This document shows, one piece after another, positions 21,275 through 63,960 of a stretch of 64,000 bases of DNA. Below the pieces are notes generated by a model. The model did not search any database and had not been told where the DNA came from. It saw only the letters and a list, made by a program, of their open reading frames with translations. A program made the translations under genes and the position numbers. Location of the stretch: positions 32,001 to 96,000 of the IMG/VR virus record IMGVR_UViG_3300027759_000003; one strand, written 5' to 3'. This stretch comes from a virus. How positions within the stretch are numbered: the first letter of the stretch is position 1; each line of letters begins with the position of its first letter.

Positions 21275-21275
21275 A

Positions 21276-21346: not shown

Positions 21347-21350
21347 CTCT

Positions 21351-21422
21351 GTCCCTATCGTCTAGTGGTTAGGACAACACCCTTTCACGGTGTAAACGAG
21401 AGTTCAATTCTCTCTAGGGATA
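21351..21422 (+). tRNA. tRNA-Glu(TTC)
   Basis: Acceptor GTCCCTA/TAGGGAT, anticodon arm ACACC-ctTTCac-GGTGT, GTTCAATTC. Confidence 0.92.
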
Positions 21423-21423
21423 C

Positions 21424-21495
21424 GCCTCCTTAACTCAGGGGTAGAGTACCCGCCTTGTAAGCGGGTTGTCGTAGGTTCAAATCCTACAGGAGGCT
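21424..21495 (+). tRNA. tRNA-Thr(TGT)
   Basis: Acceptor GCCTCCT/AGGAGGC, anticodon arm CCCGC-ctTGTaa-GCGGG, GTTCAAATC. Confidence 0.93.
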
Positions 21496-21567
21496 CAATA
21501 AATGGTATAATAGGATTGTATCTGCCTACGGGGGATACATAAACTAACTCGCTGAAAAGGAGAAAAA

Positions 21568-27452: not shown

Positions 27453-27485
27453 AGCCAGTCTAGAAATAGGCTGGCTTTTCTTTTA
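27453..27485. terminator. Terminator between convergent operons
   Basis: AGCCAGTCTA-gaaa-TAGGCTGGCT followed by T-rich tract. Confidence 0.8.
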
Positions 27486-31705: not shown

Positions 31706-32661
31706 TTTATGTTTAGAGTTTCTAATATGCTTGCCCATCTATGAACATATGTATGTTCTTTTTTAGTCCGCTCATGACCAGCAATCCTTATTTCTTCTCT
31801 GGTTAATCCATCTAAGATGTAGTAATCTATTTTTTGTTTAAGGTCTTCAAGATTACCATGCTCATAAAATATAATTTCTTTACCATCTTCAAAATATTTA
31901 TCAAGTCCTTTGATGCGGGGATAGATAGTAAAACCACCACGACCAGTGCTTTCAAATAGTCTATCGCTTGTATAGTATGGATAGTTAAAGTTTATGTTTA
32001 AACTATCACCTATGGCTACTTTGCTTCTTGCATAGATGCGATTAAGCGCTTCTCCACGCACAGTTCCAGTATCTCCATCGCCACCAACATGTAGGAATCT
32101 TTTACCGTATGTTTTTCGTAAGAAATCTATTAGTTGTGGACGGTATTTATGCTCATGGTGATACCCTTTGCTACCAACAAAAATTATGTCATGCTCAAAG
32201 TTGTGTGGATCGTAATCTTGATGAACGTAGCATTCTTTATCATATACACCAGCAGGTAAGAAATGTCCTTTAACTTCTGTATTTTCATTAAACCAATCAC
32301 ACATTAACTTATCTGTAGCAAAAAAGTGACCTATATTTGTGTAGAAATCATCATTCTTTAAATCTTTTTCACGCTCAATTCCAAACCACAAATCCAAGTG
32401 ATAAGTCATAGTTGGTATGCCAGCAGCCTTTAATTCTTTTAGTACATCAGTCATAGATCTAGATCCTGGAGTCTGCCATCTATGTGTGTGTACCCAGATA
32501 AATAGATTAGAGTTTAATGCTGCGTTTAATATTTCTGTGCTACCTGCTTTTTTTTCTTGCAGTTTTTTCACGGTATGCCCAAGAGATTCCAAAGACTTAG
32601 CATGATGATTCTCACTACTATAAGGCACTTCAAAGTTGCCTAGAAATACTATATTAGCCAA
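31702..32661 (-). CDS. Glycosyltransferase (CgeB / Glyco_trans_1_2-like)
   Basis: DIIFVGS, SDRLFESTGRGGF and HTYVHRW motifs. Confidence 0.8.
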   Translation of the reverse strand: MANIVFLGNFEVPYSSENHHAKSLESLGHTVKKLQEKKAGSTEILNAALNSNLFIWVHTHRWQTPGSRSMTDVLKELKAAGIPTMTYHLDLWFGIEREKDLKNDDFYTNIGHFFATDKLMCDWFNENTEVKGHFLPAGVYDKECYVHQDYDPHNFEHDIIFVGSKGYHHEHKYRPQLIDFLRKTYGKRFLHVGGDGDTGTVRGEALNRIYARSKVAIGDSLNINFNYPYYTSDRLFESTGRGGFTIYPRIKGLDKYFEDGKEIIFYEHGNLEDLKQKIDYYILDGLTREEIRIAGHERTKKEHTYVHRWASILETLNIK

Positions 32662-32732
32662 GGATCCCGCCCATTCTGTGTTTATAACAGTATACCAGAT
32701 TCTGATATACTTATAAGAAAGCGGGGTATTTG

Positions 32733-33422
32733 ATGGATTTTGTTTATATTTGTCGTGATGGAGAAAATGAAGAGTTAAGATACTCCATTAGGTCTGTCTT
32801 GCTTAGTTTTCCAGAGGCAAAGGTTTGGGTCGTAGGTGGAAAGCCAAAATGGTATTCTGGCAATCATGTTTTTTTAGAACAAAATGATAACAAATATGCT
32901 AATGCTGTAAATAATTTAAAGGCTGTTTGCGATACTTCAGATATATCTGATAATTTTATATTAATGAATGATGATTTTTTTATTATTAAAAAAATAGAAA
33001 CAATAGAACAATTTTACAATGGGCTGTTGTCTGAAAAAATAGATAAATTTACAAAGATTACTGGATCATCAATGTATATTAGAAAACTTATAACAACAAA
33101 CAATAAATTAAACAAGTTGGGGTTTACAAAGCCATTAGACTATGAGTTACACGTACCAATGCCAATGCATAAAGCGGGATTACTTTATATATTAAATGAA
33201 TATCCAGAATGTTTATGGAGATCAATGTATGGTAATTTATTTAATGTTGGGGGTAGTCAAATGGAAGATGTTAAAGTATATAAAAACAAAAGGCATGCTG
33301 CAAGATCAGCACAAATAACTAAAAATTCTATTTATTTATCAACAGAAGATACAGGTTTAACCATAATGGTTGATAATATATTTAAAGAATTACTAACAAA
33401 CCCTAGTCCTTACGAGCAGTAA
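32733..33422 (+). CDS. Stealth-like sugar-phosphotransferase/glycosyltransferase
   Basis: MDFVY...EELRYSIRS...KPKW...FILMNDDFF...HVPMP resemble Stealth conserved regions. Confidence 0.6.
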   Translation: MDFVYICRDGENEELRYSIRSVLLSFPEAKVWVVGGKPKWYSGNHVFLEQNDNKYANAVNNLKAVCDTSDISDNFILMNDDFFIIKKIETIEQFYNGLLSEKIDKFTKITGSSMYIRKLITTNNKLNKLGFTKPLDYELHVPMPMHKAGLLYILNEYPECLWRSMYGNLFNVGGSQMEDVKVYKNKRHAARSAQITKNSIYLSTEDTGLTIMVDNIFKELLTNPSPYEQ

Positions 33423-33424
33423 TC

Positions 33425-34207
33425 CTACTCCCAATCGGCTATTTGATTATAGGTAACAGAGTATTCTCCAGAGTATATTTCTGCATAGGAGATCATATCT
33501 TTGTTATATCGTGTTACAGTATTCTTATCTACTAAACCTGTTTTATATTTTTTACCATGCATAATTGGCAAATGTTTTATATTTTCTGATGCCAATGAAT
33601 TATTTAGTGCTTGTATATATCTAGTCTTGCCAAATTGTTTTGAAAGAAATGATTGTTTTGGATATTCTTTTTCTATCCACAGCCTTTCATTATGATCAGA
33701 AGGCTTTGGGTTTAACACTCTTTCTACTTCATTGTGATATATTCTTGTAGACCAACTCTTCATATTTCTTTCATAATTTATTAAATTTTTGTATGTAGAA
33801 TCTGCGTAAGCCATAAAATTCTTATCAAGATCAGACGTAGGTACACCAGTTGCAAATGTTATTAAAAAACAAGTAGCGTAAGGAAATTTATCCGTATATT
33901 TTATTACCTCAAAATGTAGGTTTGGATTAAAAGAATTAACAGAAATGTTGTCAGAAGTCAACCGCATATGGTTACCAATAGAGACAAACTCTGGCGTATT
34001 CATATCACAATCTACAAAAAGACAATCCTCTGGATTAATTCCATCAGCAATAGTTAAAATGTTTTTATCGTATGCCCCAACAACAACTGATCCATTGTAT
34101 CGATTAATTAACTTAGCAGTCATAAATCCATCAATATCGGGAGAAACAATTAATTTTTTAGAGTATTCTAATGTATCTAATATGCTGGTTTTTAAATTAA
34201 ATTCCAT
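33425..34207 (-). CDS. DHH-like phosphoesterase-fold protein
   Basis: SPDIDG, LFVD and GNH motifs in DHH order (degenerate). Confidence 0.45.
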   Translation of the reverse strand: MEFNLKTSILDTLEYSKKLIVSPDIDGFMTAKLINRYNGSVVVGAYDKNILTIADGINPEDCLFVDCDMNTPEFVSIGNHMRLTSDNISVNSFNPNLHFEVIKYTDKFPYATCFLITFATGVPTSDLDKNFMAYADSTYKNLINYERNMKSWSTRIYHNEVERVLNPKPSDHNERLWIEKEYPKQSFLSKQFGKTRYIQALNNSLASENIKHLPIMHGKKYKTGLVDKNTVTRYNKDMISYAEIYSGEYSVTYNQIADWE

Positions 34208-35494: not shown

Positions 35495-36655
35495 ATGACT
35501 ACCAAGAGTTTTAAAACAGGCTTATCCTTAGCGGTTGGTAACGCAAGTGCTGCTATTCCCAATTCTCCTACTATTGGCACTGCTACTACAACAGGAGCAA
35601 CAACAGCAACTGTTACATATACCGCCGCAACTTTAGGTGCTCTTGGTTCTACATTTACCGCTACATCAAGTCCAGGATCTGTTACTGGAACTGGTTCTTC
35701 ACCTATTACGGTTAGTGGTTTGACTGGTGAAACAAATTATACTTTTACAGTCACCGCTACAAATTCTAATGGAACATCAGCAGCCTCTGCTGCAAGTAAT
35801 CAAATTACTACTGATGCAAATACAGTAGTTGCCGATATGCTAATAATTGCAGGTGGAGGAAGTGGTGGAGCATATATCTATGGTGGAGGTGGAGGTGCTG
35901 GTGGATATGTAGAATCAAATTCTTATACATTAAGTTTATCTACAAATTACTCAATAACTATTGGGGCAGGTGGTGCTGGTAATAAAAATAATAATGGCTC
36001 AAATGGAAGTAATACAACATTTGGTTCTATTTATACTGCTACTGGTGGTGGCGCTGGCGGAAGTTGGAACGCTGACAGAAACGGTCAAAATGGTGGTTCA
36101 GGTGGTGGCGGTGGTGAAAATAGTGGTTCTGGCAATGCAGGTTCTGCAACACAAGCAAGTTATGGTGGATTAGGTTTTGGTAATAATGGTGGAGTTTGGT
36201 CAGGCGGTTCTGCTGGTGGCGGTGGAGGTGCAGGTGGAATAGGCGGTGTTGGTGGAACAGGTTATGCAAACTCTGCAGGTGGTGTTGGTAAATCATCTTC
36301 TATAACTGGAACTGCTACATATCGTGCTGCTGGTGGTGGTGGTTCTTCTAATGGGGGTACACCCTATGCTCTTGGCGGCAATGGCGGAGGTGGAAACGGT
36401 AGTAAATGGTTTAATGCCTCGCCTTTTCTTAATGCAACTAGTGGAGATGCTAACACTGGTAGTGGTGGTGGCGGTGATAATACACAAACTGTTGGTGCAG
36501 GTGGTGGCAATGGAGGCTCAGGTATTGTTATTTTAAGATATTTAAATTCAAAAACAATTACAATAGGTGCAGGTCTAACAGGTAGCACAGCAATAGATGG
36601 TTCACATAAAGTAACCACAATAACTGCGGGTACTGGAAATGTGAGTTGGTCATAA
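35495..36655 (+). CDS. FN3 + glycine-rich domain protein (putative adhesin/virion appendage) 1
   Basis: SPITVSGLTGETNYTFTVTATN FN3; IIAGGGSGG...GGSGIVILRY Gly-rich domain. Confidence 0.8.
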   Translation: MTTKSFKTGLSLAVGNASAAIPNSPTIGTATTTGATTATVTYTAATLGALGSTFTATSSPGSVTGTGSSPITVSGLTGETNYTFTVTATNSNGTSAASAASNQITTDANTVVADMLIIAGGGSGGAYIYGGGGGAGGYVESNSYTLSLSTNYSITIGAGGAGNKNNNGSNGSNTTFGSIYTATGGGAGGSWNADRNGQNGGSGGGGGENSGSGNAGSATQASYGGLGFGNNGGVWSGGSAGGGGGAGGIGGVGGTGYANSAGGVGKSSSITGTATYRAAGGGGSSNGGTPYALGGNGGGGNGSKWFNASPFLNATSGDANTGSGGGGDNTQTVGAGGGNGGSGIVILRYLNSKTITIGAGLTGSTAIDGSHKVTTITAGTGNVSWS

Positions 36656-38640
36656 TGGCAATTAAAAGATTAGTTAATGACTCAAGTTTAGTAAATAGTT
36701 TTAGAGCCAGTAGAGGTCAATCTAGTGCAGCAATTCCTAATGCGCCTACTATTGGTACAGCAACTGCTGTTACTGGTACTACAGCAACTGTTACTTATAC
36801 CGCCGCAGTTTTAGGTGCTACAGCATCATCCTTTACAGCAACTTCTAATCCAGGATCATTAACAGGTACTGGTTCTTCACCTATAACGGTTAGTGGTTTA
36901 GATGGTGAAACAAATTATACTTTTACAGTTTATGCAACTAATGCAAATGGTAACTCAACGCAATCTGGTGCAAGTAATCAAATTACTACACCTGTTGCTA
37001 CTTTATCTGTTGATTACTTAGTTGTCGCTGGCGGCGGCGGTGGTGGTGTTGGTGGCGGTGGCGCTGGTGGATATAGAACTTCTGTTGGCTCTGGTCAAGG
37101 TTCTCCTTTAACTATATCATTAAATGCTGATTACACTGTTATAGTAGGTGCTGGTGGCGCTACTTCAACATCAGGTATTAATTCAGTATTTTCTACAATT
37201 ACATCTACTGGTGGTGGTAGAGGTGCAAGTGGAGTCTCTGTATTTGACGGTGGTTCAGGTGGTGGTGGTAGTAATGATGCTACTAATTATGGTTTAGGAA
37301 ACACTCCAGCAACTTCACCTTCACAAGGTAATAATGGTGGCTCAAGATTTAATGGACAAACTTCAGGCGGCGGCGGCGGTGCAGGTGCAGTAGGTGGTAA
37401 TGCAAGCAATTCTACTACTGGTGGCCATGGTGGTGATGGTGCTGCTAACTCTATTACTGGTTCTTCTGTAACTTATGCAGCAGGTGGTGGAGGTGGTGGT
37501 TGGGGTGGTGGTAGTTTTAACGTTTCTGGTGGTGGTAATGGTGGTAGTAGCGGTCTCGGCGGAAATGCTGAAAGAAACGGAGTCGTTGGGCAACCAGGAA
37601 CAGTAAATACTGGTAGTGGCGGTGGCGGCGGATATTGGGTAAATGGTTTAGGTACAGGCGGCTCAGGAATTGTTGTAGCCCGATACTCAGGCACTGTACA
37701 AAAAGCAAGTGGTGGAGTGGTTACTACATCAGGTGGAAATACAATTCACACATTTACCACATCTGGAAACTTTTTAACTTTATCATCTCCACTAGCAAAA
37801 GCAAGCGGTGGAGTTATATCTACTGATGGTACTTATTGGTATCACGCATTTTTATCTTCAGCAACATTTACTCCTACTCAATCATTAACTGCTGATGTAT
37901 TAGTAGTTGCTGGTGGTGGCGGAGGAGGTACTTCTGATTCTGATACTGGCGGCTCTGGCGGTGGTGGTGCAGGTGCGCTTCGTTATTTTGCTTCACAATC
38001 ATTAACCGCAACTGGATATTCTGTAACAGTTGGTGCTGGTGGTACTGCGGGTACAACAAGTAATGTTGGTACTAATGGTATAAATTCACAGTTTGGTTCT
38101 TTATCTGCTTCATCAGGTGGCGGTTGCGGTGGTGGTGGTAATTCCCCTGGATATGGTGGAAGTAATGGTGGTTCAGGTGGTGGTGGTAAATCTAATACAG
38201 GTAATAATGGGGCTGGAACTGGAACTACAGGTGGCAATAATGGCGGTGGTGGCAATAATGGCGGACAACGTGGTGGAGGTGGAGGTGGAGGAGCAGGTGC
38301 TGCTGGTACTGCTGGTGGATTTAGTGCGTCAGGTGCAGGTGGAATTGGGTTAAATACATATTCATCTTGGGCAAGTGCAACTGGAACTGGAGTAAGTGGT
38401 TATTATGCAGGCGGAGGCGGTGGCGGAGAAGGTGGTGCATCAGGTAATGGCGCTGGACTTGGTGGAACGGGTGGAGGAGGTCGAGGCAATTCACATACTT
38501 CTGGAATTGCTGGTGCAGCGGGAACTGCAAATACTGGCGGCGGTGGAGGTGGCGGCGGAGGCAGTGCAAGCGTTGGTGGTTTATACCCAACAGGAAATGC
38601 TGGCGGTAGCGGTATAGTAATTATAAGATATGCAGTCTAA
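36655..38640 (+). CDS. FN3 + two glycine-rich domains protein 2
   Basis: FN3 then two VVAGGGGGG...GGSGIV.RY domains; ATG at 36655 coupled to the previous stop. Confidence 0.8.
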   Translation: MAIKRLVNDSSLVNSFRASRGQSSAAIPNAPTIGTATAVTGTTATVTYTAAVLGATASSFTATSNPGSLTGTGSSPITVSGLDGETNYTFTVYATNANGNSTQSGASNQITTPVATLSVDYLVVAGGGGGGVGGGGAGGYRTSVGSGQGSPLTISLNADYTVIVGAGGATSTSGINSVFSTITSTGGGRGASGVSVFDGGSGGGGSNDATNYGLGNTPATSPSQGNNGGSRFNGQTSGGGGGAGAVGGNASNSTTGGHGGDGAANSITGSSVTYAAGGGGGGWGGGSFNVSGGGNGGSSGLGGNAERNGVVGQPGTVNTGSGGGGGYWVNGLGTGGSGIVVARYSGTVQKASGGVVTTSGGNTIHTFTTSGNFLTLSSPLAKASGGVISTDGTYWYHAFLSSATFTPTQSLTADVLVVAGGGGGGTSDSDTGGSGGGGAGALRYFASQSLTATGYSVTVGAGGTAGTTSNVGTNGINSQFGSLSASSGGGCGGGGNSPGYGGSNGGSGGGGKSNTGNNGAGTGTTGGNNGGGGNNGGQRGGGGGGGAGAAGTAGGFSASGAGGIGLNTYSSWASATGTGVSGYYAGGGGGGEGGASGNGAGLGGTGGGGRGNSHTSGIAGAAGTANTGGGGGGGGGSASVGGLYPTGNAGGSGIVIIRYAV

Positions 38641-38652
38641 CAAAGGAGAAAT

Positions 38653-38853
38653 ATGAAAAAAGATAACGCAACTAAAATAAAAGAAACAAAGACAACACAA
38701 TGTTTTAGTTATGAAATAACAATGTTAGTACACGTTATTTCTGATACCGAAACAAACGCTAAAGCACAATTAGACGAAAAAGGCGGTATTGTTACAAAAC
38801 GTAATGTACAATTAGTTAATAAATCAACTCTCTACGGAGAAGAAACGGAATAA
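38653..38853 (+). CDS. Small hypothetical protein (paralog of 43310-43471)
   Basis: AGGAG RBS; CFSYEITMLVH...LDEKGG motif. Confidence 0.65.
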   Translation: MKKDNATKIKETKTTQCFSYEITMLVHVISDTETNAKAQLDEKGGIVTKRNVQLVNKSTLYGEETE

Positions 38854-38855
38854 TC

Positions 38856-39197
38856 ATGGGTCACTATGCAAAAATAGAAGACGGAATTGTTACACAGGTA
38901 ATCGTTGCCGATGGACCAGACTGGTGTGAAAAAAACTTAGGTGGTGAATGGGTTCAAACCTCATACAACACACACGGTGGAGTTCATTCAGGCGGTAAAT
39001 TTGCTATCCACAAAAATTATGCAGGTATTGGATACACATTTGACGGTATTGGCTTTGCCGCACCTCAACCTTATCCATCTTGGACAAAAAATTTAAACAC
39101 ATACTTGTGGGAAGCACCAACCCCAATGCCAGTTGATGACAAAATCTATCGTTGGGATGAAGACACAACCTCTTGGGTTGAAGTAACACAAGAATAA
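38856..39197 (+). CDS. Conserved partner of glycine-rich proteins (putative fibre assembly/chaperone)
   Basis: MGHYAKIEDGIVTQVIVA...WVQTSYN...KNYAGIGYT...PQPYPSW...WEAPTPMP...WDE motif family. Confidence 0.75.
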   Translation: MGHYAKIEDGIVTQVIVADGPDWCEKNLGGEWVQTSYNTHGGVHSGGKFAIHKNYAGIGYTFDGIGFAAPQPYPSWTKNLNTYLWEAPTPMPVDDKIYRWDEDTTSWVEVTQE

Positions 39198-39212
39198 AAA
39201 AAAGGTATCTAA

Positions 39213-41174
39213 ATGGCAGCCAAAAGAGTAGTTACCAGTAGTAGTATAGCCAACAGTTTTAAGATGAGTGTTGGACAATCTTCTGCTGCCATTCCAAATT
39301 CCCCGACAATCGGCACTGCTACTGCTGTAACAGGAACTACTGCTACTGTTGCTTATACTGCTGCCGTATTAGGGGCTACAGCATCATCCTTTACTGCTAC
39401 ATCTAATCCAGGATCACTTACTGGTACTGGTTCTTCACCTATAACGGTTAGTGGTTTGACTGGTGAAACAAATTATACTTTTACAGTTTATGCAACTAAT
39501 GCAAATGGTAACTCAGCGCAATCTGGTGCAAGTAATCAAATTACTACTCCTACTGCAAACTTAATTATTGATGCTCTTGTTATTGCTGGCGGTGGTGGAG
39601 GTGGAAGTTATGGAACTAGTGGTGGCGGCGGCGCAGGCGGATTATTATATTTTAGTTCACAAACTCTATCTCCTGCATCTTATGTAATAACTGTTGGAGC
39701 AGGAGGTGCAGCAGCCACTAATGGATATGATTCACAATTTGGTGCGTTAACTTCGGCTATAGGTGGTGGAACAACTGGAACTAATGGTGGTTCTGGTGGT
39801 GGTGCTGGTGACACTGGTAACGCTGGCTCTGGTGTAGTTGGACAAGGAAACAACGGAGGATCTAGGGGTGGAAGCATTGGTTTAGGAGGAGGAGGTGGTG
39901 CAGGAGGTGCTGGCGGAAATGGTTCAGGTAATGGTGGTGTAGGTGGTGCTGGTGTAAACACATATTCATCTTGGGCATCTGCAACTTCTACAGGTGTATC
40001 TGGATATTACGCTGGCGGCGGCGGTGGCGCTGGCCATTATAGTCAACAGGTTGGAGGTGCAGGTGGTTCAGGTGGAGGTGGAAATGGTGGTTCTGCTGAC
40101 ACAGTTGCTGCTACTTCTGGAGTTGCAAATACAGGTTCAGGTGGTGGTGGTGGTGCATTTGCTGGTTATAGTCCTAGTCCACTTGGTGGTTCAGGTGGTT
40201 CAGGAATTGTTATAGTTCGTTATCAATCTGGTACACAAAAAGCATTAGGTGGAACAATTACAACATCTGGAGGATATTATTATCATACATTTACTGCATC
40301 AGGTATTTTTCAAACAGAGTATTCAGTAGCAAAAGCAACTGGCGGATCAATAAATACTGATGGTACTTATTGGTATCACACATTTACTGGTTCAGGTACA
40401 TTTACTCCTACTCAATCATTAACTGCTGATTATTTGGTAGTAGCAGGCGGCGGCGGTGGAGGAAACATGGGCGGTGGCGGCGGAGCAGGTGGACTTCGTT
40501 CTACTGTTACTGCAACAGGCGGTGGCGGTTCATTAGAATCATCAGTATCTTTAATTAACAATACAGCATACGCAATTTCTATTGGTGCAGGAGGAACTAG
40601 TTCAGTTCAACATAATATTTCTGGCGGTCAAGGTGTAAATTCATCAATTATTGGTGGAGCAATCTCTATTACATCTACAGGTGGCGGTGGTGGAGCAAGT
40701 TATGCTTCAAGCCCAAGTAGTGGTGGTTCAGGTGGCGGCGGCCAGCGTTCTAATGGTGCAGGAGCATCTGGAACACAATATCAGGGTTATGCAGGTGGTT
40801 CAGGTGGTGGATATAGCGGTGGTGATGATAGTCTTTCATCTGGCGGTGGCGGAGGCGGAGCAGGTACTATTGGTGGTTCATATAATTCTGGAATTACTAA
40901 AGCAGGTAATGGTGGTAACGGTGTTCAAATTACTGCATTATCAACACCAACTGGAACTGGTAAAGACAGTGGCTATTACGCAGGTGGTGGTGGAGGTGGT
41001 GGATATAACTCAACCGCTGGGTCTGCAGGTCTTGGTGGAGTAGCAGGTGTAACTGGTGGCAATAATGGTATATCTGGAACTCCAAATACTGGTAGTGGCG
41101 GTGGAGGTGGCGGTACTGGAAGAAATGGCGGACCAGGCGGTAGCGGTATAGTAATAATTAGGTATGCAGTCTAA
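39213..41174 (+). CDS. FN3 + two glycine-rich domains protein 3
   Basis: Same architecture as 36655-38640; nearly identical FN3 DNA. Confidence 0.8.
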   Translation: MAAKRVVTSSSIANSFKMSVGQSSAAIPNSPTIGTATAVTGTTATVAYTAAVLGATASSFTATSNPGSLTGTGSSPITVSGLTGETNYTFTVYATNANGNSAQSGASNQITTPTANLIIDALVIAGGGGGGSYGTSGGGGAGGLLYFSSQTLSPASYVITVGAGGAAATNGYDSQFGALTSAIGGGTTGTNGGSGGGAGDTGNAGSGVVGQGNNGGSRGGSIGLGGGGGAGGAGGNGSGNGGVGGAGVNTYSSWASATSTGVSGYYAGGGGGAGHYSQQVGGAGGSGGGGNGGSADTVAATSGVANTGSGGGGGAFAGYSPSPLGGSGGSGIVIVRYQSGTQKALGGTITTSGGYYYHTFTASGIFQTEYSVAKATGGSINTDGTYWYHTFTGSGTFTPTQSLTADYLVVAGGGGGGNMGGGGGAGGLRSTVTATGGGGSLESSVSLINNTAYAISIGAGGTSSVQHNISGGQGVNSSIIGGAISITSTGGGGGASYASSPSSGGSGGGGQRSNGAGASGTQYQGYAGGSGGGYSGGDDSLSSGGGGGGAGTIGGSYNSGITKAGNGGNGVQITALSTPTGTGKDSGYYAGGGGGGGYNSTAGSAGLGGVAGVTGGNNGISGTPNTGSGGGGGGTGRNGGPGGSGIVIIRYAV

Positions 41175-41233
41175 TAAATAATAAAATAATGATACAATGT
41201 TTTTATAACTTTGATTTTTTTGAAGGGATTTAA

Positions 41234-42760
41234 ATGGCAGTCAACAACCTAAATAAGGTAAAAATTCCAGGTACTGGAACTACTGCTGCCCGTCCATCTA
41301 ATCCTGCTGTAGGAGATACTTTTTATAACGGTACCCTCGGAAGATTAGAAATTTATACATCACAAGGATGGATGGCTTTAAATGCCCCAGCAGCAACCCC
41401 TACAGGTGTAACAGCAACAGACGCAGGTTCTGGCAGGGCATACAATAATGGCTCTGCATCAATAGCATTTACTCCAGCAACAGCAGGTGGTCTACCAACA
41501 TCATATGTAGTTACATCATCTCCTGGCTCCTATACTGCGACGGGATCAGTAAGTCCAATCATAGTATCAGGTCAACAATCTTCAACTCAATATACATATA
41601 CAGTAGTAGCAAGCAATGACTTTGGAACAGCAACATCTTCTGCATCTAGTGCAGTTACTGCAACTACCGTGCCACAGGCTCCTACAATTGGTGCTGTAAC
41701 TGGTGGAAATGCTTTAGCAACAGTTGCCTATACAGCAGGTGCAACTGGTGGTTTATCTAATACTTATACTGCTACATCATCTCCAGGTGGACTTACTGGT
41801 ACTGGTTCAAGTCCTATTACAGTTTCAGGATTAACTAATGGAACTTCATATACATTTACAGTAACAGCAACAAATGCTAACGGAACATCAGCAGCAAGTG
41901 CTGCAAGTAGTTCAGTAACTCCTGTTGCAGAAATTTTAGTTGATTACCTTGTACTTGCAGGAGGCGGTGGCGGAGGCGGAGGCGGTGGTGGTGCAGGTGG
42001 ATTGCGTTCTACTGTAACTGCAAGTGGTCGTGGTACCGCACCCGAATCCAATTTAACTTTATTACCTTCAACTAATTATGCGGTTACAGTTGGTGCTGGC
42101 GGTGCTGGTGTTCTGGGTTACGAAGGAACTGGTGCTGGTGGTGGCATCGGAGCAAACTCTGTATTTAGCACTATAACTTCTCTTGGTGGAGGCGGTGGCG
42201 GAAGCAACGCTAATTTTGGTACTAACGGTGGTTGTGGTGGTGGAGCGTGTTATTCATCAGGTCAGTCAGGTCCAGGAGCAGGAACTGCTGGTCAAGGATT
42301 TGATGGTGGTCAAGATACAGTTGATATTGCCCCATATCCTGGTGCTGGTGGTGGAGGAACTGGTCAAGCAGGACAAGTGCCCCTTACTGCATCTGTCCCT
42401 GGTCCTGGAGGTAATGGTACGGCTGTATCAATTACTGGTACATCAGTTACGTATGGCGGCGGAGGCGGAGGTGGAATATATCCTTACTCTTCTACTGGTG
42501 CTCCTGGTGGTACTGGCGGAGGCGGAAGTTCAAGTGGTGGAGTAGGTGGCGACGGTACTGTCAATCTTGGTGGTGGCGGTGGTGGAAATTCAAGAACTCA
42601 AACAGGTGGCAATGGCGGAGCAGGTGTAGTTATTCTTAGATACCCAGACACTTTTACAATTTCAATTGGAGCAGGTTTAACAGGAACTACAAGTTCACCA
42701 AGTGGCGGATACAAAAGAACAACATTAACTGCAGGTACTGGAAATGTGAGTTGGGCATAA
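41234..42760 (+). CDS. Two FN3 + glycine-rich domain protein 4
   Basis: N-terminal GTTAARPSNP..GDTFYN...LEIY fibre motif; two FN3; Gly-rich domain ending TAGTGNVSWA. Confidence 0.8.
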   Translation: MAVNNLNKVKIPGTGTTAARPSNPAVGDTFYNGTLGRLEIYTSQGWMALNAPAATPTGVTATDAGSGRAYNNGSASIAFTPATAGGLPTSYVVTSSPGSYTATGSVSPIIVSGQQSSTQYTYTVVASNDFGTATSSASSAVTATTVPQAPTIGAVTGGNALATVAYTAGATGGLSNTYTATSSPGGLTGTGSSPITVSGLTNGTSYTFTVTATNANGTSAASAASSSVTPVAEILVDYLVLAGGGGGGGGGGGAGGLRSTVTASGRGTAPESNLTLLPSTNYAVTVGAGGAGVLGYEGTGAGGGIGANSVFSTITSLGGGGGGSNANFGTNGGCGGGACYSSGQSGPGAGTAGQGFDGGQDTVDIAPYPGAGGGGTGQAGQVPLTASVPGPGGNGTAVSITGTSVTYGGGGGGGIYPYSSTGAPGGTGGGGSSSGGVGGDGTVNLGGGGGGNSRTQTGGNGGAGVVILRYPDTFTISIGAGLTGTTSSPSGGYKRTTLTAGTGNVSWA

Positions 42761-48515: not shown

Positions 48516-48584
48516 TGGGCTTCTTTCTCTAGGGTTCTTAATACAATTTTACTACGAACTGGGAAAAATTACAAGGTATCGTAA

Positions 48585-48600: not shown

Positions 48601-49316
48601 CTGCTTTGGCTTGCTCCCCAATAGGTTTGAGGGTTCTCTTCAAGAAGTCCCCTAATACTATTAATAACCTCTTCGTCAGACATGATCTCTCCGTCTGTGT
48701 TTATAAGTTCCATAATCTTATCTATGATCTCACCGTGGTCCATTAGTCTTCATCCTCATCTTCATCAATTACATATGCAACATTAGACTGACCCTCGTGA
48801 AATGAAGGTGGGTCTTGCCATATACCCCAAGATAAAGAACTATCAGATAGGCCCTCTGACACTAAGTCTCCACCAAATTGCGATGAATATGTTTTAGTCA
48901 CATTACCCATAGTATGTGTTCTCATCTATGTAACCTTCTGCTAACAAACCTTCAAAGAAGTCCCATATGGTTAATAGGCCTTGCTTTACTTTTGGGTCGG
49001 TAGCGGAATCAATAGCAACAGTTAAACTATTACCAAATTCTTGTATATCCTTGTATGTATAACCTAACATTATCTATCATACTCCTTAATCAAATTCATC
49101 GCAAAGTGAAGACAACAATCGCAGTCTCCATTATTCATGCTATATATAAAGTCAAAATGTTCAGAGTTGTCCTCATATATATTCATTATTAGGCCGTCTA
49201 TGGTTAGTGGTTTGTTAATTGTGGTCATGTTAATATTTTACAGGAAACTGGGGAAAAAGTCAATCTTTCTTAATGAAACAATCATGTGTTATTATTTAAA
49301 GAAAGAAAACCCGGAG

Positions 49317-49390
49317 CGGCTCTGATGGGACTTGAACCCACGATCTCTACCGTGACAGGGTAGCGCATTAACCAACTATGCTACAGAACC
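49317..49390 (-). tRNA. tRNA-Asp(GTC)
   Basis: Minus strand GGTTCTG...CTACC-ctGTCac-GGTAG...GGTTCAAGTCC...CAGAGCC. Confidence 0.93.
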
Positions 49391-51513: not shown

Positions 51514-51595
51514 GATTTTCCTTTTCTGTTGTGGTGGTTTGTTATATTAAGTATAACATTTTTGGGGGGGCAAGTCAAGAACCCCCCCAATACTA

Positions 51596-52377: not shown

Positions 52378-52393
52378 TGTGAGATATATCACA
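52378..52393. promoter_or_regulatory. CRP/GlxR-type box (perfect)
   Basis: TGTGA-GATATA-TCACA. Confidence 0.7.
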
Positions 52394-52467: not shown

Positions 52468-53196
52468 TTATTTCTTAGATGATGAAAAGACTATGTCGCT
52501 CTTAGAGTATACACACAAACCGCAAGATACGCAAGCCGAGCCAGCGCTTGAGATAAGTGGAATGGCTTTTAGGTTTTCAGGGCACTTAGCACCAGGTCGA
52601 TTAAATAACTCCTTCATATCTGCCTGACCTATTGCAAAATTCTGTGCAAGGTATGCAAGGCGTATCCCATGATCTTTCTTTAAATTAACGCCTATCTGCT
52701 TATTCTCGCTGTCTGTTGAATAGTATAAGGATAGATTAGGAATATCCTTTAGCATTACCGCTGCAGGCTGTACCCTTGTATATACCCAGAATTTTATATC
52801 TGTATTGTTAAGGATGATTTGTTTCCATGCTTTGGTGTACGTGTCATTAAAGAAATCACCGTCCCAATGAATACGAAATAACAATGACGCATTTTTCTTT
52901 TCACAATCTTTTTTAAAATCATTAATCATATTCTGCAATAGATCAATCATAGTCGATTCGTCAGCGTCTTTTAATAATTCCCAATTATGTATTAGGTTTG
53001 CCTTTACGGCTTTGTAAAGTTTTTCAAGTTTTCCTGCGTAGCAAACACTTTCACAAACACTAGTGGCACCAGGGCATGAATAATTCTTTCCAGCGGGAAG
53101 ACCGAACGTGTTTGCAATTGCGGCTTGCTTTCCATTTTTTGTAACAAGATTAGCAACCTTTCTGTCAAATGATCTTTTTAATTGTGGTGTTGTCAT
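52468..53196 (-). CDS. Gp88-family phage protein
   Basis: FGLPAGKNYSCPGATSVCESVCYA, FRIHWDGDF, WVYTR and C-terminal CVSCGLC. Confidence 0.8.
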   Translation of the reverse strand: MTTPQLKRSFDRKVANLVTKNGKQAAIANTFGLPAGKNYSCPGATSVCESVCYAGKLEKLYKAVKANLIHNWELLKDADESTMIDLLQNMINDFKKDCEKKNASLLFRIHWDGDFFNDTYTKAWKQIILNNTDIKFWVYTRVQPAAVMLKDIPNLSLYYSTDSENKQIGVNLKKDHGIRLAYLAQNFAIGQADMKELFNRPGAKCPENLKAIPLISSAGSACVSCGLCVYSKSDIVFSSSKK

Positions 53197-53299
53197 ATAA
53201 ATATTTTAGCAGAATGTGGAGAAAATATCAAGTGTACGTAAGGTACAAAACGGACAAATCGGGCAGGGCCGGGTTTTTCTGCGGGGAAGTGCAGAAAAA

Positions 53300-53915: not shown

Positions 53916-54139
53916 TATTTAATTACGACCTCTCCGTTAGTGTAGAAGGTTTTAGTATACATCTTACCTGTTGGGTCAGACAAATTATAGGTTGCGTATT
54001 CTTTAGCAAAGCCATAGTCCACGCATTTATCCCAAGCCCTAACTGCTTCTAGCATATCGCTAACTCGCAGGGTATGAATTAACTCTCCATCATATGAAGT
54101 AGTAAGTGAATAAGTATATTCCATTAGTTTAGTTTCCAA
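53915..54139 (-). CDS. Hypothetical early protein
   Basis: AWDKCVDYG.AKEYATYNL motif; coupled to the downstream gene. Confidence 0.6.
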   Translation of the reverse strand: METKLMEYTYSLTTSYDGELIHTLRVSDMLEAVRAWDKCVDYGFAKEYATYNLSDPTGKMYTKTFYTNGEVVIK

Positions 54140-54313
54140 TCCATTAGTTCGTCAGCAGATATAGCGTAAGGATTACACTCGCAAGGCTCACTATCAAAGT
54201 CTACATTATTTCCTTGATATATCCAACCATAGCCGTAGCAGTATTCGTGCTCTAGTATATCCATTAGTGCTTCTTTTACTTTACCCATTTGTTCCTTCTT
54301 TCTTTATATCTTT

Positions 54314-54335
54314 ATCCTATCAGATACAACTGACA
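54314..54335 (-). promoter_or_regulatory. PafBC-type (RecA-NDp) promoter
   Basis: TGTCAG-N10-TAGGAT. Confidence 0.6.
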
Positions 54336-54435
54336 AAATCCAATTAGACGCCTTAATCTGGGGAATTTAGGGTGTGATCTTAACCACACGTAAAGGTCAT
54401 GTATAGATTGCGACACGCCGCCTGCGCCGGGTTTT

Positions 54436-54451
54436 TCGAACAAATGTTTGA
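54436..54451. promoter_or_regulatory. Actinobacterial LexA (SOS) box-like site
   Basis: TCGAAC-AAAT-GTTTGA, one mismatch to TCGAAC-N4-GTTCGA. Confidence 0.45.
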
Positions 54452-54476
54452 GCAGTTTTTATTCTTGCTCAGGAAT
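54449..54476 (-). ncRNA. Repeated pseudoknot-like RNA motif copy
   Basis: ATTC-CTGAGCAA-GAAT-AAAAAC-TGCTCA. Confidence 0.55.
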
Positions 54477-54482
54477 TTTTAT

Positions 54483-54629
54483 TTATACTTTAAATGCTTT
54501 ACGCAATTCATTTCGCAATCTGCGAATTTCTTTTTGTTGTGCAATATTTTGTTTCCAAAATAAACCCATAACAGTTAAGCAACCAAGTAGCGCAATTATT
54601 ATTGCAATCACATCTAAATTAGTTATCAT
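54483..54629 (-). CDS. Small single-TM protein
   Basis: Read by eye: MITNLDVIAIIIALLGCLTVMGLFWKQN... Confidence 0.55.
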   Translation of the reverse strand: MITNLDVIAIIIALLGCLTVMGLFWKQNIAQQKEIRRLRNELRKAFKV

Positions 54630-54634
54630 TTGTT

Positions 54635-54844
54635 TTACCCCTTCCACATTTCAGAGCCAACAGGAATTAAACCAATTTCATCAATTCCGCAAGCCTTTTC
54701 AAATCTTGCAAAATCAAAGTTTTCATTATCTGATTGAAACCAATCCGCAAATTCTTGAATTAAATCTTCATAAGTATTTTGTGGAATTTCATCTACAAAA
54801 CTTTTTAGAATGTTTGCGGTTTTGATGTAGTCTTTTCTAGTCAT
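54635..54844 (-). CDS. Hypothetical early protein (MTRKDY...NFD..RF..AC family)
   Basis: Recognisable small phage protein motif. Confidence 0.7.
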   Translation of the reverse strand: MTRKDYIKTANILKSFVDEIPQNTYEDLIQEFADWFQSDNENFDFARFEKACGIDEIGLIPVGSEMWKG

Positions 54845-54992
54845 TAGTCAGCCTCTTTCGTAGTAAATAAAGTGCCTAGTGCAAAGTTTTTACATTCGCA
54901 CTTTTCTACATCATAGGCAAGATTATCTCCCCAAAAAATATAACCTGCGCCATTACATTCATCACACTTAAAAGTCATTACGCTACTAATCA

Positions 54993-55178
54993 TTATGCTA
55001 ACGCCTTTCCTCTAAGTGTGCCACGAACACCCAACACATCACAAGCAATTTTTACAGATACGCCAACAGGTAATTGGTTTGGGTAAGTGTTTATGAATTG
55101 AGCAACCGCACCCTGAGAAGGTAGGTTGATATTTTTTACAGCACCATTAAAGGTTTCTAGTTTTACAGTATAAGTCAT
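54993..55178 (-). CDS. Small early protein (paralog of 57173-57367)
   Basis: VKLETFNG...FINTYPNQLPVGVSV. Confidence 0.65.
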   Translation of the reverse strand: MTYTVKLETFNGAVKNINLPSQGAVAQFINTYPNQLPVGVSVKIACDVLGVRGTLRGKALA

Positions 55179-55211
55179 TTCTGACCACCTTTCGTTTTTG
55201 TTTGAGTTATT

Positions 55212-55233
55212 ATTCTATCAATTATCGCTGACA
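55212..55233 (-). promoter_or_regulatory. PafBC-type (RecA-NDp) promoter
   Basis: TGTCAG-N10-TAGAAT; perfect CRP box at 55262-55277. Confidence 0.62.
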
Positions 55234-55382
55234 TTTTCCAATTATAGGGGGTGTGTTGGAGTGTGAGTTGCCTCACATCTCCTTTATATTAGCCTGATGA
55301 TAAGCAAGGGTTATCTCCTCGCCATACTCGGCTACTAGGTCGGCATAGACCTCATCTAGATAGTTAAGGTAATCAGACATTA

Positions 55383-55583
55383 TTAACCTACCTGAACCGC
55401 TACGGTGCGGAAAGTATTGTTAATGCGACCTTCATCTATTTCTACAAAATAGGCTTCAGTATTATCACCATACCAAAGAGCACCCTTAGATTTTTCTGCG
55501 GAAATAATTGTTCCGTCAGTTAAGGATTTAGATGAATAAGATTTACCAATTAGCAAATCTTCTATTGTGTATAAGTTAGCCAT
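55383..55583 (-). CDS. Small early protein
   Basis: MANLYTIEDLLIGKSY...; RBS and promoter upstream. Confidence 0.65.
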   Translation of the reverse strand: MANLYTIEDLLIGKSYSSKSLTDGTIISAEKSKGALWYGDNTEAYFVEIDEGRINNTFRTVAVQVG

Positions 55584-55620
55584 TGTTAGCCACTTCCTTT
55601 CGTTATTTTCTTACTCCGTA

Positions 55621-55642
55621 AGTCTATCAGAATTAACAGACA
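55621..55642 (-). promoter_or_regulatory. PafBC-type promoter (variant TGTCTG)
   Basis: TGTCTG-N10-TAGACT; perfect CRP box 55691-55706; DnaA box 55718-55726. Confidence 0.55.
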
Positions 55643-56229
55643 TTTACAACCTACTAGCCAGTAATCTCAAATAATAAGACGCTCAAACTGTGTGAGAAAA
55701 ATCACATCGTACGTAAGTTATCCACAGGCTGTGGACGACACGCCATGCGTGCCGGGTTTTTTGCAGAGTTTTTATTTCTGCAAAAATTTTTTATTAGTTA
55801 AATTTATCTAATAAAATTTGTTTAACAATTTCTAATTGCGCTTCGGTTAAATTAGTTAATTCAACTGCGTTTTCAAATTGCTTAGTTATGCTTTCTGTAT
55901 TATTTTGCATTTTTATGTTTTACCTTTCTACTATATTTTTTTTTATTTGGAATTGGTGTTGCCGCATTACTACGGCGCAATTCTTGAATACGAATAATTT
56001 TGTTTTTTATTTCTTTTAACATTTTATTATTCCCAACAATTAGAGCAAGTAATTATATCTTGCTCATCAAAAAATTCGCTAGAAACTTTTTCATTACATA
56101 GACGACAATTAAGAGTTATCATTTATATTCTCCTTTTAAGATAAGTTCATCTAGCATTTTTGCTAGAGGGTCTATCTGCTCGTCAGCAAGATAGTTAGTT
56201 AATTCTAAATCTTTTACAAAGTTTATCAT

Positions 56230-56403
56230 TTACTTACCTACCTTCCATGAAGACCAATAAGATAGCAATTCGCTATCCTCAATATAGTGAGAATAAATAT
56301 TCTGCTCACAATTTTCGCAGAAACTATATTTCATATCATTTACGATAGATGTCGCTAATAGATTAGCGGTGTGCTTACACACTTTGTTTAGTAGTGAATT
56401 CAT
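56230..56403 (-). CDS. First leftward early gene, small Cys-containing protein
   Basis: Read by eye: MNSLLNKVCKH...SFCENCEQNI...WSSWKVGK; AAGGA RBS. Confidence 0.55.
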   Translation of the reverse strand: MNSLLNKVCKHTANLLATSIVNDMKYSFCENCEQNIYSHYIEDSELLSYWSSWKVGK

Positions 56404-56455
56404 TTTGAATTCCTTTCTTTAAGAGATTTACTTATTGTTCAATCTTTATACTAGA

Positions 56456-56477
56456 AGTATAACAGCGACCACTGACA
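56456..56477 (-). promoter_or_regulatory. PafBC-type (RecA-NDp) promoter
   Basis: aTGTCAGTGgtcgctgtTATACT matches tTGTCRgtg-N8-TAnnnT / TGTCRG-N10-TAnnnT. Confidence 0.65.
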
Positions 56478-56489
56478 TTTACTGACCAG

Positions 56490-56850
56490 TAGGTAGGACA
56501 AAACGGACATTGTGTCTTGTGATGTAGGTCATGTGGATAACTTGAGCGTGAAATGGGTATGTGATCTACGTCATGTGGATAACCCTCTCAGACACACCCG
56601 ACCGAGCCGGGTTGCATGTCCGATATGTCCGATATGTCGTGTGGTATATATCACTAATTACATGCGTGTTATTTACGGCGTGTCGTGTTGACTTTTGGGG
56701 TTATCCCTGCTATAATTCCATTATAGAAAATTAAATATAGAATTATTTAGGGGCGTGAGCCTAGCAAGTAAATGTGAGACAAATCACAGTGAGCCTAGCA
56801 AATAACCCCCCCTAAATTGTCAGCCCCCCCTGCTAGAATTGCAGGTATAG
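56490..56850. promoter_or_regulatory. Divergent regulatory hub (CRP boxes, DnaA boxes, sigma70 and PafBC promoters)
   Basis: CRP-like boxes 56518, 56560, 56640, 56773; TGTGGATAA 56532 and 56574; TTGACT-17-TATAAT 56688-56716; TGTCAG-N10-TAGAAT 56818-56839. Confidence 0.7.
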
Positions 56851-56880: not shown

Positions 56881-57036
56881 ATGATAAACAATAACCCTAA
56901 CAATCCCCTTATTTCGGATATTAGAAAAGCCCAACAGGCTCGCTATGACCGAGAGGATCAGAGTATCCTTGAAGCGTTAAATCAGGCTAACGCCTATCTA
57001 TCTGCTCAATACAATTTAGATGAGGAGGTTAAGTAG
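56881..57036 (+). CDS. First rightward early gene, small protein
   Basis: AGGAG RBS; 51 aa read by eye. Confidence 0.55.
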   Translation: MINNNPNNPLISDIRKAQQARYDREDQSILEALNQANAYLSAQYNLDEEVK

Positions 57037-57038
57037 TT

Positions 57039-57176
57039 ATGGAACTATTTTTAGACTTAGATGGTTTTGGTTTATATGCCGAGAGCATTGCCTTAGCAGT
57101 AGAGATACCAACATGGTTGTTGGTTGGCACTATTGCGTTCATTTATTCAATTAAATTGATTAGGAGAGACAAGTGA
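57039..57176 (+). CDS. Small membrane protein
   Basis: GAGGAGG RBS; 45 aa with a C-terminal TM segment. Confidence 0.55.
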   Translation: MELFLDLDGFGLYAESIALAVEIPTWLLVGTIAFIYSIKLIRRDK

Positions 57177-57367
57177 TACCAGTAAAACTAACAACAGTTA
57201 ACGGCTCGGTGGCAGACATGCCATTTACAAGCAAAGAAAAAATACTAGAGTTTATTGATCAATACTCTAACGCATTACCAATTGGCACAGCAGTAAACAT
57301 TGACGCACCGCTAGTTGGTATTCACTCAGGTTGGATACAAGGACGCAAGGCTACTGCTAACGCATAG
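57173..57367 (+). CDS. Small early protein (paralog of 54993-55178)
   Basis: VKLTTVNG...FIDQYSNALPIGTAV. Confidence 0.65.
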   Translation: MIPVKLTTVNGSVADMPFTSKEKILEFIDQYSNALPIGTAVNIDAPLVGIHSGWIQGRKATANA

Positions 57368-62779: not shown

Positions 62780-63004
62780 ATGAGTAAGTGGTCAGAGTAT
62801 AAAGAAAAAAATGGATCAACTCCACTGGATTTTTTAAATCCAAGAACTAACCGTGTTAGTGATGAAGTTGCAAAATCAAGACTTGATATATGCATATCTT
62901 GCCCAGAATTAATACAAATTACAAAACAATGTAAAAAATGTAGATGTTTTATGACAGCAAAAACAAAAATTGAAGCATCCAGATGCCCAATAGGAAAATG
63001 GTAA
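62780..63004 (+). CDS. Small Cys-rich protein
   Basis: RLDICISCPEL...QCKKCRCFM..KTK....CPIGKW. Confidence 0.75.
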   Translation: MSKWSEYKEKNGSTPLDFLNPRTNRVSDEVAKSRLDICISCPELIQITKQCKKCRCFMTAKTKIEASRCPIGKW

Positions 63005-63960
63005 TGAATAAGATTTATGTTTCAATAGCATCTTATCGAGATCCATATTTACAAAGTACAATAGATTCACTTTTTCTTGAAGCAGATAATCCAGAAAATA
63101 TAACAGTTGGATGTTTTATACATGCTTTAAAAAATGAAATTAAAGATTTAAGCCTAAAAAAAACATATAACAATAAAGTTAAATATGAAATTGAGCAGGC
63201 TGGTACAGTTTTTAGCGTTACCGCTTGTAGAAATCGTTGTTTAAAATGGCTTGACAGTACTTATAAATACACCTTACAAGTAGACTCTCATTCAAGATTT
63301 GATAAAGGATGGGATACAAAATTAATTAATATTATAGAGTCTACAGGTGATAATAAAGCAATACTTAGCGGTGCGTTACCAGTTTTTGATATTTTAGAAG
63401 ATGGCACAGAAGAAAAAAAACAACAAGATTATCCAGTTTCATTTACTGTGCATACTGACACAACCAAAGAGAATATTTTGCATTCCTACGACCTATCTCC
63501 AAGGGGAATAGTTTTACAAACACTTGAAAACAAGGAATACGCTATTGATTGGTATTTAACTGGACATTTTATTTTTTCTTTAAGTGATTATTTTAAAAAA
63601 ATTCCACAACCAGACTGGGTTTTATTTTGGGGAGAAGAAGTTTTAAACGGTGTTAGAGCCTTTACTGCTGGATATAACGTTTATATTCCAAAAAATGTAC
63701 CAATTTATCATTTGTATTCTGATAGAATAAAAAGACCAAGATTAGTTCAAGATTTTCCAGAAAAATATTTTTTATTAAGAGACTATACAACAGACAGAAT
63801 TATTGATATACTAATAGGTAAAGATATTAAAGAAAATGATATTTTTTATGAAAGAAGTATAGAAAGTTTTTATAACTACGTTGGTTATAATTTAGGAGAA
63901 TTATTTGATTCTTGGAGAAATTGGAGAAAAGAGTTAATTGATAAGGGGAGAAATGAATAA
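63004..63960 (+). CDS. GT60-like GlcNAc transferase (Skp1 hydroxyproline GlcNAc-T family)
   Basis: IYVSIASYRDP...TI.SLF..ADNPENITVG, LQVDSHSRF.KGWD, FWGEE...VRAFTAGY and YHLY motifs. Confidence 0.8.
   Translation: MNKIYVSIASYRDPYLQSTIDSLFLEADNPENITVGCFIHALKNEIKDLSLKKTYNNKVKYEIEQAGTVFSVTACRNRCLKWLDSTYKYTLQVDSHSRFDKGWDTKLINIIESTGDNKAILSGALPVFDILEDGTEEKKQQDYPVSFTVHTDTTKENILHSYDLSPRGIVLQTLENKEYAIDWYLTGHFIFSLSDYFKKIPQPDWVLFWGEEVLNGVRAFTAGYNVYIPKNVPIYHLYSDRIKRPRLVQDFPEKYFLLRDYTTDRIIDILIGKDIKENDIFYERSIESFYNYVGYNLGELFDSWRNWRKELIDKGRNE

Follow-up and report, generated by a model that had tools for sequence, protein, structure and literature searches.

What reads the promoters closest to the point from which the gene arms of an uncultured virus diverge? 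The window considered here is a 64-kb stretch of DNA, bases 32001–96000 of the 109,757-bp IMG/VR virus record IMGVR_UViG_3300027759_000003 (GC content, 36.7%), and the divergence point lies at about 56.5–56.8 kb of it. Beside this point are five copies of a two-part element, TGTCWG followed by 10 nt and TAnnnT, which a sequence-only reading had taken for mycobacterial promoters of the RecA-independent (RecA-NDp) type, dependent on the activator PafBC. All five were recovered at the coordinates and on the strands given there, with the exact spacing claimed. We put the probability that they are PafBC-type promoters, read with the PafBC of the host, at roughly 0.7. The five sites and the open reading frames (ORFs) that follow them are listed below, with positions counted from the first base of the window.

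54314–54335, minus strand: putative PafBC-type promoter 1, TGTCAG-N7-TGa-TAGGAT, before a 54-residue ORF at 54124–54288.
55212–55233, minus strand: putative PafBC-type promoter 2, TGTCAG-N7-TGa-TAGAAT, before ORFs 54993–55178, 54844–54993, 54635–54844 and 54483–54647.
55621–55642, minus strand: putative PafBC-type promoter 3, TGTCTG-N7-TGa-TAGACT, before a 66-residue ORF at 55383–55583.
56456–56477, minus strand: putative PafBC-type promoter 4, TGTCAGTG-N8-TATACT, the exact RecA-NDp form, before ORFs 56230–56403 and 56119–56229.
56818–56839, plus strand: putative PafBC-type promoter 5, TGTCAG-N7-TGc-TAGAAT, before the rightward ORFs 56881–57036, 57039–57176 and 57173–57367.

Four of the sites thus point leftward and one rightward from the divergence point. 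The upstream element is TGTCAG at four of them and TGTCTG at the other, with GTC present in all, and TGn precedes the −10 hexamer at every one. As had been proposed, each site stands just upstream of a ribosome-binding site and start codon: the start codons of sites 1–5 lie 25, 33, 37, 52 and 41 nt past the −10, with a purine-rich Shine-Dalgarno sequence between. The genes served encode products of 36–74 residues that belong to no known family. Promoter 1 probably also drives the ORFs downstream of 54124–54288, as promoter 4 probably does ORFs 55900–56022 and 55794–55910.

The pattern TGTCWG-N10-TANNNT matches the window seven times, compared with 1.47 matches expected. Two of these, at 33028–33049 (plus strand) and 53961–53982 (minus strand), are without TGn, lie inside coding sequence and fit the chance expectation. 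The strict pattern TGTCWG-N7-TGNTANNNT occurs five times in the whole 109,757-bp genome, in each case within 54314–56839, and its reversed control does not occur at all. That the repeats are not promoters, and are instead chance matches or replication or packaging elements near the divergence point, is very improbable. Matches to the DnaA box at 55718, 56532 and 56574 would suit such a role, but seven or more matches were found in 0 of 100 shuffles, every site is correctly oriented with respect to a Shine-Dalgarno sequence and start codon, and hundreds of co-oriented copies are present in relatives of the virus.

The consensus obtained genome-wide for PafBC in M. smegmatis is tGTCgg(N10)tA(N3)T, with the 5' part at −23 to −28 and no −35 element, and its GTC is strictly conserved across actinobacteria (PMC8635444). 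Such PafBC-dependent promoters (RecA-NDp, recA P1-type) of Mycobacterium and other Actinobacteria operate by 'sigma adaptation' (PMC8635444, PMC11804915, PMC5656591). Residues R46 and R50 of PafB read the two guanines of the GTC triplet, PafC contacts domain 4 of sigma-A (PMC8635444), and PafBC is activated by binding single-stranded DNA (ssDNA) (PMC11804915). The phage sites share the 22-nt layout, i.e., TGTC[A/G]G, exactly 10 nt and TAnnnT, together with the invariant GTC. Their upstream element would be centred at about −26, a position that in the phage is reckoned from the −10 hexamer alone, and the fuller TGTCRGTG is found at site 4 and at many sites in relatives. The phage sites differ from the known PafBC promoters in three respects: (i) They precede tiny, family-less genes on a lytic-type phage rather than DNA-repair genes. 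(ii) Their core is stricter, with T1 and G6 nearly invariant and A preferred at position 5. (iii) They nearly always have TGn, and they have an A-rich 5' flank and, in a minority, a weak −35 element.

Judged by its genes, the virus is an actinophage, because it encodes WhiB and a Stanwilliamsviridae-like head protease. WhiB is taken to be exclusive to Actinobacteriota and serves as an actinophage marker (PMC10202952).

26036–26353, plus strand: whiB (PF02467, E = 2.8e-12), a marker for an actinobacterial host.

The head protease is 52–55% identical to those of Streptomyces phages of the Stanwilliamsviridae (Jay2Jay, Wakanda) and of Rhodococcus phages; among deposited phages, none has DNA similarity to this one. 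The genome also encodes a DnaB-type helicase, a primase, a large DNA polymerase, a UvsX-like recombinase, a Cas4-type nuclease, RuvC and a terminase, as well as a ribonucleotide reductase, a portal, a protease and a capsid protein. No tyrosine integrase was found, in a search that did not extend to serine recombinases. We read the virus as a lytic-type phage of a low-GC actinobacterium. Its 109,757-bp record carries a 72-bp terminal repeat, which may be an artefact of circular assembly and perhaps nothing more. The phage yielded no WYL domain, no sigma region 4 and no HTH_11 domain, Pfam revealed no regulator domain in 21 scanned early ORFs (66–243 residues), and Pfam and PHROGs together gave the scanned early ORFs neither a regulator nor any known function. 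The assignment to PafBC is supported as regards the GTC core, the 10-nt spacer and the TAnnnT that match the consensus, the actinobacterial nature of the phage and the lack of a detectable WYL, HTH_11 or sigma protein of its own. The label 'mycobacterial' does not fit a phage with a GC content of 36.7%, the relatives of which are uncultured low-GC phage contigs.

The same promoter layout recurs throughout these relatives. With the GP88-family protein encoded nearby as query, 378 related stretches were identified in IMG/VR, and the best 80 loci (1.3 Mb) contain 353 copies of the strict motif, nearly all co-oriented with the early genes. In an unbiased tally, with no box presupposed, the hexamer 10 nt upstream was counted for each TAnnnT that had a ribosome-binding site and an ORF after it. 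TGTCAG was counted 217 times, TGTCGG 23 times, TGTCTG 15 times and TGTCCG not once, and any other hexamer at most 14 times. Of the 546 TGn contexts in this tally, 208 contain GTC, 203 of them as TGTC[AGT]G, and TGn is present at 203 of 255 family sites. The spacing is rigid: 189 unique TGTCAG sites have a spacer of 7 to TGn, equivalent to N10, whereas spacers of 4–6 and 8–11 are represented by 0–2 sites. A sequence logo of 239 unique sites displays an A-rich GAAAW 5' of the box, C at positions 8 and 13, and A at about +7 and +10 past the −10, where the transcript is expected to start, followed by the ribosome-binding site. Such a fixed distance from the −10, kept by a short box that is not a palindrome, would be expected of an element recognised by RNA polymerase or by way of it, and not of a repressor operator.

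Three further phage contigs bear on whether the reader is encoded by phage or host. In G406 (115 kb; 55 ORFs in common with the present phage, 46% identity) and G407, most sites have the form TGTC[AG]GTGG, which is a fuller version of RecA-NDp. The third, G405, was obtained by a pattern scan of IMG/VR and is a 111-kb contig with a GC content of 43.7%, two whiB genes and 12 strict sites. It has only nine ORFs in common with the phage, namely the ribonucleotide reductase, a CHAP-domain protein, thioredoxin and a few small unknowns, and no portal, capsid, terminase or polymerase. No WYL domain was found in any of the three. The simplest explanation for two lineages that have almost no genes in common and yet use the same box at the same spacing is that related hosts supply the reader. 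Thus, because G405 uses the motif while sharing almost no genes with the phage, a host-encoded reader is favoured.

On the host side, we used six complete actinobacterial genomes of 1.38–1.50 Mb (G700, G662, G718, G681, G640 and G614), drawn from a class-level sample around a large WhiB-rich genome, as stand-ins for the real host of the phage. By their size and by the GC content of the loci read (43–52%), they appear to fit 'Ca. Nanopelagicales'. In all six, TGTC[AG]G-N10-TAnnnT is located 150–210 nt upstream of recA, the identity of which was confirmed. In three of these genomes the recA site reads TGTCAGTGG..CTGnTACCTT, in full TGTCAGTGGCnCCTGnTACCTT, and so has both TGTCAG and the extended −10 (TGn) of the phage sites; directly 3' of it lies a LexA-type box, TCGAACagatGTTCGG. 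The motif is also found 5' of carD in three of the six. Tandem WYL genes are present in eight of ten small genomes, including all six stand-ins and two others. The one pair that was checked, from G700, matches PafB (E = 4e-39) and PafC (E = 9e-22; Pfam HTH_PafC) of M. smegmatis and is located near tatC, as in mycobacteria; its PafB retains both GTC-reading arginines, R46 and R50, in the motif ERMFERDK. Streamlined actinobacteria therefore possess PafBC and promoters of its type, the form of which matches that of the phage sites. We favour PafBC as the reader because the phage motif equals the published consensus, the five strict sites are clustered, the spacing is rigid and conserved across the family, no phage reader is recognisable, and small actinobacteria have both PafBC and the same motif at recA.

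Wider searches for a host gave mostly negative results. In a phylum-wide sample, 20 recA upstream regions of small genomes have LexA boxes and no PafBC motif. In 16 of the 18 genomes checked among these, neither a family search nor the phage WhiB used as query gave a WhiB match, and such genomes probably represent WhiB-less deep actinobacterial classes that are uninformative about the host. Genomes of about 1 Mb with a GC content of 26–34% (the class of G381) have 0–1 strict matches each, and the ten such matches that were read lie in or adjoin coding sequence, none being a clear intergenic promoter. An acI 16S probe sequence matched 0 of 401 and is uninformative. The search for WhiB homologues returned phage proteins only, and an Atlas search with a surface-type protein viral clusters only. 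When genome contigs were searched with the phage WhiB, the matches were confined to phage-like contigs of 34% GC mis-binned in metagenome-assembled genomes. One of these genomes, G001, labelled Acidimicrobiaceae, is chimeric, with a tandem WYL pair on chromosomal DNA of 70–72% GC; the whiB genes on its 34% GC phage-like contigs are 64–70% identical to that of the present phage. The strict motif is not enriched in 46 small genomes, except in G222 (7 vs 0), which has no WhiB and in which the sites precede unrelated genes. None of our conclusions depends on the unpublished genomes G003, G020, G050, G084, G090, G150, G176, G228, G241 and G338. G222 is complete (1.84 Mb; GC, 69%), and its seven TGTC[AT]G-N7-TGnTAnnnT sites, against none in controls, are intergenic and precede genes for secreted proteins, a sugar transferase and rpsT, i.e., the same box in a different lineage before non-repair genes.

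Several observations weigh against a role of PafBC at the phage sites: (i) The A-rich GAAAW that precedes TGTCAG in phage sites is absent from the host sites. (ii) The motif is not enriched in the Streptomyces relatives Jay2Jay and Wakanda and is thus not a trait of the whole Stanwilliamsviridae-like group. (iii) We infer the presence of PafBC from the stand-in genomes rather than from the true host, and the loci read in these genomes have a GC content of 43–52% vs 36.7% for the phage. (iv) TTGGAT, TTGGAA and TTGTAA lie 17–18 nt 5' of the −10 at sites 1–3, respectively, and sites 4 and 5 have no −35. (v) In the phage family, 34% of 651 sites match TTGACA in at least four of six positions vs 14% at random; the remaining 66% match in three or fewer and are random-like. 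(vi) In G405, TTGC[AG]AA lies exactly 17 nt 5' of the −10 at all 12 TGTCAGG sites (44828–72864), so that a full −35 coexists there with a PafBC-type box. (vii) A −35 together with a TGn extended −10 might allow firing without any activator. (viii) A phage factor could be made first from the ordinary promoters that lie in this arm and ahead of site 5. The −35-like elements at part of the sites are our main reservation about dependence on PafBC, because PafBC promoters are described as having no −35.

These hexamers raise the alternative of strong, activator-independent SigA promoters with an extended −10 and a weak −35, in which the TGTCAG box would serve another purpose, for instance as the site of a phage or host protein that shuts off early transcription or as part of the spacer through which promoter strength is tuned. 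The TGn at all five sites and at most family sites is in line with it, as are the enrichment of −35-like hexamers in the family and in G405 and the fact that promoter 2 is also picked up by a sigma-70 scan, through TTGGAA at 18 nt. We nevertheless regard such promoters as an unlikely explanation. A 6-bp non-palindromic box at one exact distance is the signature of a contact with RNA polymerase rather than of an operator, the −35 is no better than random at two thirds of the sites, and the TT of TTG is not conserved. Moreover, the known PafBC element is this very box, which recurs with the same spacing at recA in genomes that carry PafBC.

The sequence-only reading had also placed ordinary −35/−10 promoters further left, at 48.5–53.2 kb, and four were confirmed, all on the minus strand. 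A fifth, on which that reading was silent, stands in tandem with promoter 5, about 100 nt upstream of it and facing the same gene.

53203–53231, minus strand: ordinary promoter, TTGATA-17-TAAAAT, 5' of the GP88-family gene at 52468–53196; first of the four in 48.5–53.2 kb.
51550–51578, minus strand: ordinary promoter, TTGACT-17-TATACT.
49235–49263, minus strand: ordinary promoter, TTGACT..TAAAAT.
48546–48574, minus strand: ordinary promoter, TTGTAA-17-TAAAAT.
56688–56716, plus strand: near-consensus ordinary promoter, TTGACT-17-TATAAT with TGn (11 of 12 matches in the sigma-70 scan).

If the product of an ordinary promoter switched on the five units, which would then be delayed-early or middle genes, one would look for ordinary promoters such as those found in the early arm and ahead of site 5. 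The reader of TGTCAG would in that case be a phage-encoded or virion-delivered adaptor that bridges to sigma, like MotA/AsiA of T4, and the dozens of small early ORFs without a known family leave room for a novel factor. We consider such an adaptor distinctly unlikely. The motif is common to G405, with which no early gene or regulator is detectably shared; the phages checked yielded no HTH_11, WYL or sigma domain; and a new factor would need to have copied both the core and the spacing of PafBC by chance or mimicry. The middle promoters of T4, with a MotA box at −30 and AsiA ('sigma appropriation'), do resemble the present sites in that the −35 is replaced by a box nearer the −10 and an adaptor contacts sigma region 4, a parallel to PafBC drawn previously (PMC8635444). 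They differ in that the T4 adaptor and co-factor are made by the phage, whereas here no phage candidate was found and the box matches the site of a host factor.

If PafBC is the reader, the five promoters would be recognised by the housekeeping RNA polymerase of the host through sigma adaptation. The PafB-PafC heterodimer of the host, active only when bound to ssDNA, would be placed between the DNA and domain 4 of sigma-A and would recognise the GTC of TGTCAG (about −28 to −23). The extended −10, TGnTAnnnT, exactly 10 nt downstream of the box, would be recognised by sigma domain 2. Transcription would start about 7 nt past the −10, giving leaders of 20–45 nt with strong ribosome-binding sites, and the small proteins of the five units probably act in host takeover or anti-defence. 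The identity of the host, the dependence on PafBC, the source of the ssDNA and the timing are all matters that we infer. It is speculation from position only that the five units are the 'first genes' of the phage and that incoming DNA is the trigger, as had been suggested earlier. Firing of the ordinary promoters, both those of this arm and the one at 56688, could precede that of the PafBC-type sites, and the ssDNA could equally come from the recombinase and nuclease activity of the phage itself or from its replication.

Coupling of phage transcription to a DNA-damage or ssDNA signal of the host, which PafBC dependence would entail on our best reading, is also known for phage genes under LexA/SOS control. 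There, however, LexA is a repressor that is removed by RecA-ssDNA, an arrangement typical of temperate phages, whereas an activator would be involved here and the phage has replication genes of its own and no tyrosine integrase that we could find. No perfect LexA box is present in the 64-kb window. A second parallel is provided by BrxR and CapW, WYL-domain regulators of defence islands (PMC9122601, PMC11662680). They too are ssDNA-sensing and tied to phage infection, but it is host genes that they regulate, whereas the target promoters considered here are located on the phage.

The stand-in genomes suggest how PafBC itself might be linked to defence. G700 has 15 loose matches to the motif, of which nine are TGTCRGTG and ten fall within 439–471 kb. 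In the surrounding 34 kb (G700:C1:438001-472000), eight of nine sites are less than 250 nt upstream of ORFs, which encode a C5 DNA methylase, an OGG-like glycosylase, two TPR proteins, a trypsin-like peptidase and unknowns; an SNF2 helicase and a subtilase are encoded near the 439–471 kb sites. Comparable clusters of sites occur at about 450–510 kb in G662, G718, G681 and G640. From its gene content, the G700 block looks like a defence island under PafBC-type promoters. Host and phage might then be wired to one ssDNA alarm, with PafBC both a defence trigger and a phage host factor, although we hold this only tentatively and think it doubtful on balance. In streamlined actinobacteria of the freshwater type, PafBC would turn on recA, carD and the defence-island-like block, with its DNA methylase, OGG-like glycosylase and TPR and protease genes. 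Lake actinophages of a large, abundant group would keep small early genes, plausibly for counter-defence, behind the same promoters, so that a cell sensing ssDNA born of infection would at once transcribe the phage counter-measures as well.

The sigma adaptation performed by PafBC was worked out in mycobacteria and is not known in any capacity other than that of a host response to DNA damage. We found no paper on PafBC-type promoters in a phage. The nearest work is reportedly that of Rafique et al. (2025; cited in PMC12848934), which is said to concern PafBC and the resistance of the host to mycobacteriophages. If our interpretation is correct, one widespread group among the uncultured actinophages uses the ssDNA sensor of the host as a transcription factor for its early programme, and a lytic phage would thereby have a novel means of timing its gene expression. 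The breadth of the group is indicated by the 378 related IMG/VR stretches from one gene alone and by at least two lineages that differ in gene content, and hundreds of natural promoter variants would become available for dissecting the specificity of PafBC. The analysis also widens the known range of PafBC and RecA-NDp to include genome-streamlined actinobacteria, where it connects them with defence-island-like genes.

Other sequence elements surround the divergence point. Perfect TGTGA-N6-TCACA palindromes, similar to CRP or GlxR sites, occur at 52378–52393, 55262–55277, 55691–55706 and 56773–56788 and nowhere else in the window. Three of the four are 40–90 nt upstream of promoters 2, 3 and 5, an imperfect copy, GTGTGGTTAAGATCACAC, lies 5' of promoter 1, and the palindrome at 56773 is flanked by direct repeats, GTGAGCCTAGCAA. 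Perfect DnaA-box 9-mers are present at 55718–55726 (plus strand) and, as TGTGGATAA, at 56532–56540 and 56574–56582; two of them fall within direct repeats spaced by 42 bp (TGTGAT-N5-GTCATGTGGATAAC). These boxes may mark a replication origin or DnaA-dependent control. GACAC[AG]CC is found between the units at 54412–54419, 55737–55744 and 56591–56598 (plus strand), followed by ..GCCGGGTTTTT in two of the three copies. In G405, several TGTCAG boxes have the related GCGACAC 25–35 nt to their 5' side, and the recA promoters of G700, G662 and G718 have it 10 nt before the box; a GACAC-type element may be a second site common to phages and hosts.

Elsewhere in the window, a minus-strand block at 27483–34207 encodes sugar-modification enzymes (two glycosyltransferases, a nucleotide-sugar epimerase and a methyltransferase), and a GlcNAc-transferase gene is located at 62983–63960. 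Four paralogous proteins of 386–664 residues with fn3 and glycine-rich domains are encoded at 35495–42760, where the GC content is 43–45% vs 33–39% in the remaining genome. There are five tRNA genes: those for Asn, Gly, Glu and Thr are consecutive at 21199–21496, and that for Asp stands alone at 49316–49390, within the early arm.

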